Source of the DNA: a virus
Taxonomy: Duplodnaviria; Heunggongvirae; Uroviricota; Caudoviricetes
DNA length: 4,030 nucleotides
IMG/VR virus record: IMGVR_UViG_2671180878_000023
Direction: 5' to 3' (one strand)
How positions within the stretch are numbered: position 1 is the stretch's first letter; every line of letters starts with the position of its first letter. The notes under the pieces were generated by a model that was given only the letters and a program-made list of their open reading frames with translations, did not search any database and had not been told where the DNA came from. The position numbers and the translations under genes are program-made. Below are positions 1 through 2,596 of this stretch, in pieces.

Positions 1-11
1 CCGGCAGCATA

Positions 12-49
12 ATAAAAAAAGCCAGCGCCCACTCTGAAGGACGCTGGCT
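12..49 (-). terminator. Rho-independent terminator oriented on the minus strand
   Basis: Seen in sequence: 8-bp arms AGCCAGCG (20-27) and CGCTGGCT (42-49) around a 14-nt loop. On the + strand an A-run (12-20) precedes the stem, so on the minus strand the hairpin is followed by TTTTTTTATT. No U-run follows it on the + strand. Confidence 0.45.
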
Positions 50-119
50 AAAACGGGTAGATGTACTTCACATGATACTTATATTTGGCAGTACATTTTC
101 TGACAGACAGTGACGGATG

Positions 120-146
120 TTGTCAAGATATTGTGTCATTTATAAC
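120..146 (+). promoter_or_regulatory. Candidate sigma70 late promoter (pR'-like) upstream of the holin
   Basis: TTGTCA (120-125) and TATAAC (141-146) with a short 15-nt spacer, followed by a G-rich initial transcribed region and then the terminator at 195-229. Position matches the pR'-then-tR' arrangement of lambdoid late regions. Hexamers picked by eye; spacer is suboptimal. Confidence 0.25.
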
Positions 147-194
147 CTGAACCAGGGGGGGCGGAATGTTATCTGGCATTTTTAGCAGAAGTTG

Positions 195-229
195 GCCGTC
201 AGTGGGTGACACTGGCGGCTTTTTGTTTT
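195..229 (+). terminator. Strong rho-independent terminator, tR'-like, directly upstream of the holin
   Basis: Seen in sequence: 10-bp stem GCCGTCAGTG (195-204) / CACTGGCGGC (210-219) with one G-U wobble, 5-nt loop GGTGA, then TTTTTGTTTT (220-229). Lies 46 nt upstream of the holin ATG, where lambdoid phages place tR' (read through only under Q antitermination). Confidence 0.6.
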
Positions 230-274
230 CCTTTACTTTCATTTTCTGTCGGCGGTGACGGAGACATACATCAG

Positions 275-481
275 ATGGAAAAAATCACAACAGGTGTGTC
301 ATACACCACGTCAGCGGTAGGGACGGGATACTGGTTACTGCAACTGCTGGACAAAGTCTCTCCGTCCCAGTGGGTGGCAATAGGTGTGCTGGGGAGTCTG
401 CTGTTTGGCCTGCTGACGTATCTGACTAACCTTTATTTCAAGATTAAAGAAGATAAGCGTAAGGTGGCGCGGGGAGAGTAG
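275..481 (+). CDS. S: Class II holin, pinholin of the phage 21 S21 family (68 aa)
   Basis: Translation [68 protein letters not shown] matches S21 pinholin in length and sequence as I recall it. Weakly hydrophobic Gly/Ala/Ser-rich TMD1, hydrophobic TMD2, charged C-terminal tail. GGAG at 260-263 sits 11 nt upstream of ATG 275. The track ORF 206-481 is an in-frame GTG extension with no better start. Confidence 0.9.
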
Positions 482-736
482 TCGATGAATAAACAATACG
501 AACTGGTTGTAAAATGAATATTTCTAACTGAAAAAACGTTCCATGAGGTGAGAAAAGGTCACAGGCAATCAATAACAGGACGTGATGAAAGACCCTTGCA
601 TTTGTGCGCTTTCTCTTTAGATAGCAGCAGATACTGAAAATCTGAGTTGTCGGGGAGTCAGGGATACAGCTGTGCAAGAGTTGGTCATTGTGATTCCATT
701 GAAATCCTGTATGCCATGAAGGGCAGGATTTTATGG

Positions 737-1051
737 CTACCTGAGCTTTGGTGATAGTAAGTTGAAAATTCGCATTTTTTGCTGACATGCGTAACGAGAA
801 TCCCATAAGCAGGGAGGACTTAATTCTTCATTAACCCATGCGTTGATATTATGTTTCAGCCGTTGAAGCATCAGCGGTGTTAATGTTGTGGTAATAATAT
901 CCAGCGTTTTATGTGAGATCTTACCGTAAGGGTCTGCAAGAATGCTGCTTGTTGCTTCGTTATTATCTGCCATCAGAAGAAGTAACTCTGATTTAACGTT
1001 TTCTGTCATTAGTTGTAAAAATCTTCTGCGCAAACTTTCTTTACTGTTCAT
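737..1051 (-). CDS. Hypothetical protein (104 aa) on the opposite strand, inside an AT-rich insert between holin and endolysin; function unknown
   Basis: Only substantial ORF in the 687-bp holin-endolysin gap (482-1168); no + strand ORF of 60 aa or more there. Insert is about 37-40 percent GC against roughly 50 percent or more in the lysis genes. Codon usage is AT-biased (TTA, CTA, AGG). Shine-Dalgarno is weak (GAAG about 10 nt upstream). I recognise no family. C-terminal 25 residues look less protein-like. Confidence 0.5.
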   Translation of the reverse strand: MNSKESLRRRFLQLMTENVKSELLLLMADNNEATSSILADPYGKISHKTLDIITTTLTPLMLQRLKHNINAWVNEELSPPCLWDSRYACQQKMRIFNLLSPKLR

Positions 1052-2137: not shown

Positions 2138-2596
2138 ATGCTTTCCGCGTTTACCGTTATTCTGCTGGTGGTCTGTGGTGCGCTTAGTCTGGGGCTGAAT
2201 CATTACCGCGATAACGCCATCACCTACAAAGCGCAGCGCGATAAAAAAGCCAGTGAGCTGGATCTGGCAAACGCAACCATTACTGATATGCAGGTGCGCC
2301 AGCGCGATGTTGCTGCGCTCGATGCAAAATACTCGAGGGAATTAGCCGATGCGAGAGCTGAAAATGAAACTCTGCGTGCTGATGTTGCCGCTGGTCGTAA
2401 GCGCCTGCGGATCAACGCCACCTGCCCCGGTACCGTGCGTGAAGCCACCGGCACCTCCGGCGTGGGCAATGATGCCGCCGTCGAACTCTCTCCGGTTGCT
2501 GGACGAAACGTTCTCGGTATCAGAGACGGAATCATCAGCGACCAGGCAGCATTGAGAATGCTTCAGGAATATATCCGCACTCAGTGTATTAACTAG
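2138..2596 (+). CDS. Rz: i-spanin Rz (inner-membrane spanin subunit), lambda Rz homolog
   Basis: From Met 2138: [36 protein letters not shown]...[29 protein letters not shown]...QCIN. N-terminal TMD then [16 protein letters not shown], a coiled-coil region, and a C-terminal Cys, all closely matching lambda Rz as recalled. Alternative start GTG 2123 would add a short basic cytoplasmic tail (SINR) like lambda's MSRVT. The track ORF 1973-2596 is an upstream extension with no homology. Confidence 0.92.
2349..2555 (+). CDS. Rz1: o-spanin Rz1 (outer-membrane lipoprotein spanin subunit), embedded in the +1 frame of Rz
   Basis: [44 protein letters not shown]... has a signal peptide with lipobox VSAC and a proline-rich mature region, matching lambda Rz1 (MLKLKMMLCVMMLPLVVVGC...CVKPPPPPAW as recalled). 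Lies wholly inside Rz in another frame. GAGGGA sits 8 nt upstream of ATG 2349; Met at 2364 is an alternative start. Confidence 0.85.

Follow-up and report, generated by a model that had tools for sequence, protein, structure and literature searches.

The closest described counterparts of the locus analyzed here are the sRNA genes pasC and pasA, which have the sialic acid esterase gene on one side and the holin-lysozyme operon on the other (Zhu, Shabalina and Storz, bioRxiv 10.64898/2026.05.13.724894). PasC was defined in EPEC E2348/69 as a Northern-validated RNA of 79 nt, with CGCTGGCTAAAACGGGTAGATGTAC as the published Northern probe (Pearl Mizrahi et al. 2021, PMC8550237 Table S6), and RNAs of 79 to 85 nt were found by Northern blotting and RNA-seq (PMC8550237). 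In E2348/69, PasC was expressed at a baseMean of 1294, was Hfq dependent (log2 fold change of −2.13 upon hfq deletion, under activating conditions), and had 31 RIL-seq interactions, the rne 5' UTR being among the partners (PMC8550237). The 3' stem-loop and poly(U) stretch have been described as a terminator and likely Hfq-binding site, and it was considered that the mature 5' end of PasA may arise by cleavage of a longer transcript (Zhu et al., bioRxiv 10.64898/2026.05.13.724894). The proposed seed of PasA, GCCAGCACCU, overlaps the terminator stem (PMC8550237 fig. S5; Zhu et al., bioRxiv 10.64898/2026.05.13.724894).

PasA is found in prophage PP2 of E2348/69 and in phages H-19B, 434, and YYZ-2008, and it matches PasC in locus, strand, 5' end (CUGCCA...), promoter block, and general architecture. 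The stem core AGCCAGC/GCUGGCU is common to the two RNAs, whereas the inner stem and loop of PasA (GCAC/GUGC) are different. PasA is also separated from the esterase stop by ~150 nt, another minus-strand terminator stands beside that stop, and the PasC hairpin resembles a hybrid of the two hairpins of the PasA locus. In the phage 434 record (OL657226), terminators are annotated at 45305..45327 and 45456..45474 on the minus strand and at 45673..45709 on the plus strand. The minus-strand pair are the PasA-type counterparts, in the two-hairpin PasA arrangement, although the annotation names no sRNA; the plus-strand terminator is at the position homologous to the plus-strand hairpin described below.

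In EHEC Sakai, EcOnc51 and EcOnc52 were reported as Hfq CRAC peaks (Tree et al. 2014, PMC4104026). When compared with the present locus, they were found to coincide with the homologous hairpins of Sakai Sp12 and Sp4, on the same relative strand, and are PasA equivalents; for EcOnc52 (Sp4), the PasA-type locus is rearranged and the peak lies over its esterase-proximal hairpin. The convergent anti-sRNA pairs found at the moron site in lambdoid prophages (AgvB, AsxR; Tree et al. 2014) are, like PasC, short Hfq-binding sRNAs antisense to the late operon and beside moron genes, but AgvB, AsxR, and STnc100 are of a sequence family different from PasC. For the plus-strand hairpin the nearest model is the lambda tR' or 6S RNA terminator, likewise a canonical intrinsic terminator of a Q-dependent late operon upstream of the lysis genes.

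The DNA analyzed (the window, IMG/VR record IMGVR_UViG_2671180878_000023, 4,030 nucleotides) is the late region of a lambdoid prophage. Several bovine and human STEC and O26:H11 strains carry prophages with 100% identity to the window across all 4030 bases, bar one 28-bp gap. In the otherwise identical prophage of O26:H11 11368, the esterase CDS (WP_000143048.1; 616 aa, with Pfam domains SASA, DUF1737, and DUF6645) ends at the nucleotide corresponding to window position 12. The features of the window are as follows.

1..12, plus strand: 3' end of the nanS-p / SASA-family sialate O-acetylesterase gene, with the TAA at 10-12
13..49, minus strand: predicted PasC intrinsic terminator and likely Hfq-binding module, with the stem-loop at 49→20 and U7 at 19→13
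14..91, minus strand: pasC sRNA gene (78 nt, transcribed 91→14), assigned by identity to E2348/69 PasC
95..189: near-invariant block common to PasA and PasC loci, holding the predicted PasC promoter and upstream DNA
97..126, minus strand: predicted PasC promoter, with −35 TTGACA at 126→121, an 18-nt spacer, and the TG-extended −10 TGTCAGAAA at 105→97
189..190: site of the 28-bp deletion (GCCTGAATGCCATAATCACGGCTCCCGG), private to the window
194..229, plus strand: intrinsic terminator, with the stem-loop at 194-220 and the T-run at 221-229; the last late-operon terminator before the holin
275..481, plus strand: class II (phage 21-type) holin S (Pfam PF04971, E = 1.9e-32; RefSeq annotation)
737-1009, minus strand: 90-aa ORF, 3' of the holin and inside the 482-1168 insert
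1169-1702: lysozyme (R), after the minus-strand 737-1009 ORF
2138-2596: Rz, after the lysozyme

The Shine-Dalgarno sequence of holin S is GGAG at 260-263, and the genes beyond Rz continue up to an HNH endonuclease. The interval between the esterase and the holin is very probably a small self-contained minus-strand sRNA gene followed by a plus-strand terminator. Both elements had already been described, PasC in publications of 2021 and 2026 and the plus-strand terminator in the annotation of phage 434, while a comparative paper on nanS-p (PMC10462455) makes no mention of terminators or sRNAs for the esterase-holin interval.

The minus-strand hairpin and PasC

A reading of the raw sequence had placed two hairpins of opposite orientation in the first 230 nucleotides, and both were recovered there by folding and scanning (49→20 and 194-220). 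A simple terminator scan of the window gave 8 terminator-like sites versus 4.3 ± 2.0 expected; the two hairpins within 1-230 have 11-pair stems and the top G-C pair counts of that scan (8 for the minus-strand hairpin and 7 for the plus-strand hairpin). Both are real, strand specific, conserved, and beyond chance.

The minus-strand hairpin consists of an 11-bp stem at 49→20 with 8 G-C pairs and an 8-nt loop, and it folds at −22.7 kcal/mol compared to −9.4 ± 2.5 kcal/mol for shuffled sequences (z = −5.27; 0 of 200 shuffles as good). The U7 at 19→13 follows directly, and the same flank read on the plus strand is AAAACGG, in agreement with the earlier statement that the U-run of this hairpin exists on the minus strand only. 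The structure was further supported by covariation among 17 distinct PasC, PasA, and related variants, taken mostly from ~100 IMG/VR loci. Six pairs of the stem were invariant, and 5 of the 11 pairs were changed on both sides, with compensatory changes of the types G-C/A-U, C-G/U-A, and U.G/C-G/U-A. The observed level of covariation was reached in 0 of 500 shuffles, and it collapsed when the registers were slid. The U.G wobble forms a pair only in the minus-strand RNA, and the U-run of the RNA (the A-run of the plus strand) was kept in all variants except two truncated PasA-3-like copies. The 3' stem-loop with poly(U) that characterizes the PasC/PasA family is therefore present in the window, and by both fold and covariation its structure is conserved.

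The identity of the leftward RNA was deduced from a comparison of window 91→14 with PasC of EPEC O127:H6 E2348/69 (NC_011601, 1290909→1290832, minus strand), which gave 77 of 78 identical positions. The sole substitution is at RNA position 8, which is G in E2348/69 and A in the window. The Northern probe CGCTGGCTAAAACGGGTAGATGTAC corresponds to window 42-66 on the plus strand, which places the PasC RNA on the minus strand, and the published 5' end of the RNAs maps to window 91. The setting is also that of the family: the RNA lies between the esterase stop (10-12) and the holin gene (275-481) and is encoded on the strand opposite to both. With the PasC locus in PP5 of E2348/69 the window shares the strand relative to esterase and holin, a terminator abutting the esterase stop, and the upstream promoter block. 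The two loci differ in that PP5 is interrupted by ISEc13 and IS200, whereas the downstream holin cassette of the window is intact, and in that the window, unlike PP5, lacks the 28 bp upstream of the plus-strand terminator. The exact PasC sequence of the window was the commonest PasC variant among the related loci collected, which were mostly from IMG/VR; the window thus provides a further intact example of pasC in its most frequent form, beside a complete lysis cassette.

By this identity the leftward RNA is assigned to the published Hfq-binding sRNA PasC, of ~78 nt, the expression of which as an ~80-nt Hfq-dependent RNA was shown in E2348/69, and the 49→20 hairpin with its U7 is assigned as the intrinsic terminator of PasC. 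The sequence-only reading had called for a leftward transcript ending at about 12-20 and had offered a very short divergent RNA as one possible source. The end of PasC corresponds to window 14, and the short RNA is the published PasC of 78 to 79 nt. The orphan leftward terminator seen in the raw sequence is accordingly the 3' end of PasC, a pathogenicity-associated Hfq-dependent sRNA of Stx-type EPEC/EHEC prophages. The practical value of this is modest. A known sRNA gene was correctly detected from sequence alone, with an interpretation that was partly wrong.

In the mechanism proposed, polymerase would start near 90 from the promoter at 126→97, proceed leftward, and stop at the 49→20 hairpin and U7. 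The product would be the ~78-nt Hfq-dependent PasC, the gene of which is convergent with that of the esterase and directly adjoins the esterase stop codon. The stem-loop and U-tail of PasC would serve at once as terminator and as a likely module for Hfq binding. Within the stem, the 5' arm (49→39) is the counterpart of the proposed PasA seed and is probably a PasC seed, which by analogy with PasA would act on trans targets.

When the whole window was searched against Rfam 15 with a cut-off of E ≤ 1, the sole match was a spurious VR-RNA at 1775-1929. The stretch 1-230 had no match to any Rfam family, AgvB, AsxR, and STnc100 included, from which it was concluded that PasA and PasC are absent from Rfam 15. 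The abundant Sakai Hfq peak EcOnc10, located downstream of Rz in Sp12, was also considered and was set aside, as it has no similarity to the window.

The plus-strand terminator and the RNA that reaches it

The plus-strand hairpin occupies 194-220; its 11-bp stem includes 7 G-C pairs, its loop is 5 nt long, and TTTTTGTTTT comes directly after it. It folds at −20.5 kcal/mol (z = −3.97). On the minus strand two G.U wobbles of the same segment become C.A mismatches, the fold weakens to −13.4 kcal/mol, and there is no U-run. The hairpin and T-run were kept in 100 of 100 related loci, with folds of −15.8 to −23.2 kcal/mol, and two one-sided substitutions in the stem (C→T giving G.U, and T→C making a G.U into G-C) keep the pairing only on the plus strand. 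The homologous hairpin of phage 434 (OL657226 45673..45709) is annotated as a terminator 45 nt before the holin. The segment 194-229 thus has the form of an intrinsic terminator, namely a G+C-rich stem-loop followed by a U-run on the transcribed strand.

The terminator is inherited with the PasA/PasC block rather than with the holin. Window 1-500 was matched by 394 phage records, mostly at 80 to 90% identity, and window 1-275 was matched by 29, of which 28 matched over at least 80% of 1-275. The identity to phage 434 over 43-275 was 84.4%, the 28-bp gap included.

Plus-strand transcripts were traced with data from EPEC. The RIL-seq fragments of the plus strand span the PasC antisense region at about window 16-154, from which it follows that plus-strand transcripts pass the PasC hairpin, and the lack of a U-run on the plus strand of that hairpin likewise leads to the interpretation that esterase transcripts run through the PasC antisense. 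In uninduced EPEC, the esterase had an RNA-seq baseMean of 102 and the holin and lysozyme values of 3.5 and 3.2, respectively, a drop of ~30-fold, although this drop could also reflect RNA decay or collision with PasA transcription. It is most likely that 194-229 ends uninduced esterase and other non-antiterminated transcripts and so shields the holin, with termination presumably at 226-229. Transcripts leaving the esterase gene would end at the 194-220 hairpin and its T-run, and in the lysogen the genes for holin, endolysin, and spanin would thereby stay silent. Once the prophage is induced, the Q-type antiterminator encoded ~5.3 kb upstream would modify polymerase so that it reads through 194-229, as well as through several earlier terminators. 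The interval is accordingly reread as an sRNA gene followed by an insulating terminator and not as a late promoter.

The 28-bp gap of the window falls just upstream of this terminator. The 28 bp GCCTGAATGCCATAATCACGGCTCCCGG were present in all relatives examined, which comprised the best-matching sequences from 692 E. coli genomes, each of the 100 related loci, and two phages (H-19B and 434); none of the complete E. coli genomes among the matches listed had the deletion, and the 30-mer across the deletion junction had 0 exact matches in genome, viral, and metagenome contig collections. In full-length relatives the 28 bp form the 3' arm of a long plus-strand hairpin just upstream of the terminator, for which the 95..189 block provides the 5' arm. 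The deletion truncates this hairpin and spares the terminator at 194-229. The deletion may represent a private mutation, an error of assembly, or an edit. The allele could be used to probe the effect of the upstream hairpin on termination at the holin-proximal terminator beside it. A minus-strand ORF of 39 aa at 123-242 was considered as a gene to the right of the leftward hairpin and was rejected, since it exists only through the deletion and in a full-length relative is closed by a stop after 21 codons.

Two further roles were weighed for the plus-strand RNA of this region. The first is that the RNA running from the esterase stop through the PasC antisense to 194-229 is an sRNA-controlled gate before the lysis genes, where pairing could tune termination or read-through at the entry to the holin, or else affect how stable the esterase mRNA is. 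This was suggested by the full complementarity of the plus-strand RNA to PasC and by its behavior in EPEC, where it is an abundant Hfq-bound partner of the prophage sRNA PasB (774 chimeras). Taken together with the alternative that 150-229 is itself an unrecognized plus-strand sRNA, this proposal is considered unlikely.

That alternative, in which the plus-strand hairpin terminates an sRNA that starts near 155, diverges from PasC, and measures ~103 nt in relatives and ~75 nt here, was also assessed separately and judged quite unlikely. The segment 150-229 of full-length relatives does fold as a long 5' hairpin plus terminator, which is sRNA-like; the block is near-invariant and inherited with PasA/PasC and not with the holin (29 versus 394 phage records for query 1-500); and a weak promoter-like site is present at 120-148. 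However, the EHEC Hfq CRAC table has no same-sense peak upstream of the Sakai Sp12 holin, and no sRNA was called there by RIL-seq. Furthermore, the plus-strand RNA covers ~16-154 and hence already starts before the putative 5' end, and its RIL-seq role is that of a target (RNA1), and the 28-bp deletion would destroy the 5' hairpin. The preferred role of 194-229 is that of a terminator for RNA arriving from the esterase gene.

Predicted promoter and start of the leftward transcript

Among the sigma-70-like sites on the two strands of window 1-300, the one at 126→97 ranks first. Its −35 (TTGACA) is perfect, while its −10 (CAGAAA) is poor and leans on the TG extension, and a standard promoter scan of the window did not include it among the sites reported. 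The start predicted from this site is near 90, compared to the reported PasC/PasA 5' end at the column equal to window 91. The promoter sequence was invariant in six aligned PasA/PasC loci, in which window 95-152 was invariant and the RNA body varied. We infer that the predicted promoter at 126→97 drives PasC, which thereby gains a promoter prediction that can be tested.

The independence of this transcript from DNA further to the right was deduced from E2348/69. In PP5 the homology to the window ends at 226, where ISEc13 and IS200 are inserted, yet the predicted promoter is retained and PasC is expressed, indicating that the transcript needs nothing to the right of 226; the support for promoter autonomy is limited to this PP5 case. 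In PP2, PasA is expressed though S and R abut without an insert. Because the 5' end of PasA may be processed, the true start could lie further right, though within 92-226.

These data bear directly on a proposal made in the sequence-only reading, that the minus-strand terminator ends a long antisense RNA which starts in the 482-1168 insert (for example, at ORF 737-1009) or further right, crosses the holin, and regulates it in cis. Between 737 and 50 there is no convincing minus-strand terminator, the only candidate being a weak 5-bp one at 307→293, so that leftward transcription out of the insert could extend as far as 49→20; the possible longer PasA precursor (Zhu et al., bioRxiv 10.64898/2026.05.13.724894) would also fit. 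Against this, the RNAs seen by Northern blotting and RNA-seq are 79 to 85 nt with 5' ends at window 91, PasC is made in PP5 with ISEc13 and IS200 to the right of 226, PP2 expresses PasA without the insert, and a strong −35 stands at exactly the right distance from the reported 5' end. Cis-antisense control of the holin would entail a minus-strand transcript over 275-481, whereas the published ends in EPEC equal window 91 and 14. A long antisense RNA is thus needless and very unlikely, and antisense control of the holin is left without a basis. As assigned here, PasC is short and divergent, and has its own predicted promoter; it is not an antisense RNA across the holin.

Position of the Q-like gene

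In the sequence-only reading, the DNA between the two hairpins had been taken as a late-promoter region and the plus-strand hairpin as a textbook tR'-type terminator subject to Q-dependent antitermination. A plus-strand terminator before the holin is indeed present and its override by Q is plausible, but the tR' label and the late promoter were not upheld. The gene in the Q position of the otherwise identical O26 prophage (L001 3436-3978, 180 aa) lies ~5.3 kb upstream of the holin and encodes a protein with DUF1133 and Phage_antitermQ (PF06530, 28.6 bits, above cutoff). Within ~200 nt after this gene there is a promoter-proximal hairpin of its own, ACCCGC-TTTAT-GCGGGT followed by T7. The DNA from the Q-like gene to the holin in this prophage carries a methyltransferase gene, two tRNA genes, terB, an STnc100/PasD-like and AgvB sRNA pair just upstream of the esterase gene, and the esterase gene itself, together with five further plus-strand terminator-like hairpins. 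In phage 434, a Q82-like gene and its adjacent terminator are ~3.7 kb upstream of S.

The reading in which 50-194 is pR' and 194-229 is tR', so that the holin belongs to a promoter-proximal Q-antiterminated unit as in lambda, could draw on a weak plus-strand sigma-70-like site at 120-148 (TTGTCA-17-TAACCT) and on the strong terminator ~45 nt ahead of the holin start codon. It was rejected as extremely improbable. The 120-148 site scores no better than several chance sites, and the Q-like gene is distant and has its own hairpin and T7 (O26), the distance being ~3.7 kb in phage 434. Moreover, window 50-274 had no more than chance 8- to 9-mers in common with the sequences that follow Q in three phages (the O26 prophage, 434, and H-19B). 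Unlike lambda tR', then, the plus-strand hairpin is not promoter proximal, being ~5.3 kb from the Q-like gene and after several terminator-like hairpins, and it has neither a position near pR' or the Q gene nor a sequence relation to pR'-tR' regions.

The last reading, that the 20-49 hairpin terminates plus-strand transcripts, either as the terminator of the esterase gene itself or as a bidirectional one, is scarcely credible: the hairpin does begin 8 nt past the esterase stop codon, and its plus-strand version retains a fold of −18.1 kcal/mol, but there a C.A mismatch replaces the U.G wobble and AAAACGG instead of a U-run comes next, which argues against a plus-strand terminator, and plus-strand RIL-seq fragments cross 20-49, while the wobble and compensatory pattern fits the minus strand.

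Possible origin of the PasC hairpin and a private deletion

The hairpin that ends PasC, the minus-strand sRNA at 91 to 14, was assessed by comparing window 13-60 with three loci of the type carrying its sister sRNA, PasA (L005 2750-3000, L003 2800-3050, and L002 5790-6040). PasA-type loci have two minus-strand terminators in tandem, about 150 bp apart, one adjoining the stop codon of the sialate esterase gene and the other ending PasA. In its left flank and its stem, the PasC hairpin agrees with the hairpin next to the esterase gene; to the right of it, the stretch coding for the sRNA body matches PasA. From this comparison, the one hairpin of PasC appears to be a composite of both PasA-type hairpins, a make-up that suggests a deletion of about 150 bp, or a recombination, between the two hairpins.

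At window 189/190, 28 bp (GCCTGAATGCCATAATCACGGCTCCCGG) found in every relative examined are missing. This deletion is private to the window, and the 30-mer across its junction had no exact matches in the collections of genome, viral, and metagenome contigs. Through it, the 3' arm of a long plus-strand hairpin just 5' of the pre-holin terminator was lost. The minus-strand 39-aa ORF at 123-242 was rejected as a gene, since it was created solely by the deletion and its frame reaches a stop after 21 codons in the full-length O26 sequence.

RNAs flanking and crossing the sRNA locus

In L001, the otherwise identical prophage of O26:H11 11368, a convergent sRNA pair was found just 5' of the esterase gene, some 2 kb before the first base of the window:

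within L001 6760-7014, plus strand, STnc100/PasD-like sRNA (140 bits)
within L001 6760-7014, minus strand, AgvB sRNA (96.5 bits)

The esterase gene thus has sRNA genes at both flanks. In published RIL-seq data, an abundant Hfq-bound partner of PasB, another prophage sRNA, was a plus-strand RNA crossing the pasA/pasC gene, with 774 and 54 chimeras in the non-activating condition:

E2348/69 (NC_011601) 743482-743611 and 1290834-1290972, plus strand, partner regions corresponding to about window 16-200

No discussion of this pairing was found in the passages covered.

Late genes around the lysis cassette

L001 3436-3978, gene at the Q position, with DUF1133 family protein as its sole annotation
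482-1168, insert between holin and lysozyme genes, carrying a 90-aa ORF (737-1009, minus strand)
1793-1825, perfect 13-14-bp hairpin (AAAACCCCGTTTG...CAAACGGGGTTTT) between lysozyme gene and Rz
1995-2126, 43-aa ORF 3' of that hairpin
2349-2555, plus strand, +1-frame ORF embedded in Rz, with the lipoprotein-like signal LPLVVSAC

The product of the Q-position gene also scored above the Pfam threshold for Phage_antitermQ (PF06530; 28.6 bits), and the hairpin with T7 at most about 200 nt 3' of this gene is likely tR'.

The holin and lysozyme genes abut in E2348/69 PP2 and phage 434, whereas in the window they are separated by the insert. Its 90-aa ORF had no Pfam match; because no good minus-strand terminator follows, its transcript would continue antisense into the holin gene.

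The 1793-1825 hairpin scored as terminator-like on both strands in a simple scan and, together with the 43-aa ORF, interrupts the R-Rz cassette in an unusual way. The embedded ORF, absent from the RefSeq feature list of the O26 prophage, would be the Rz1 o-spanin.
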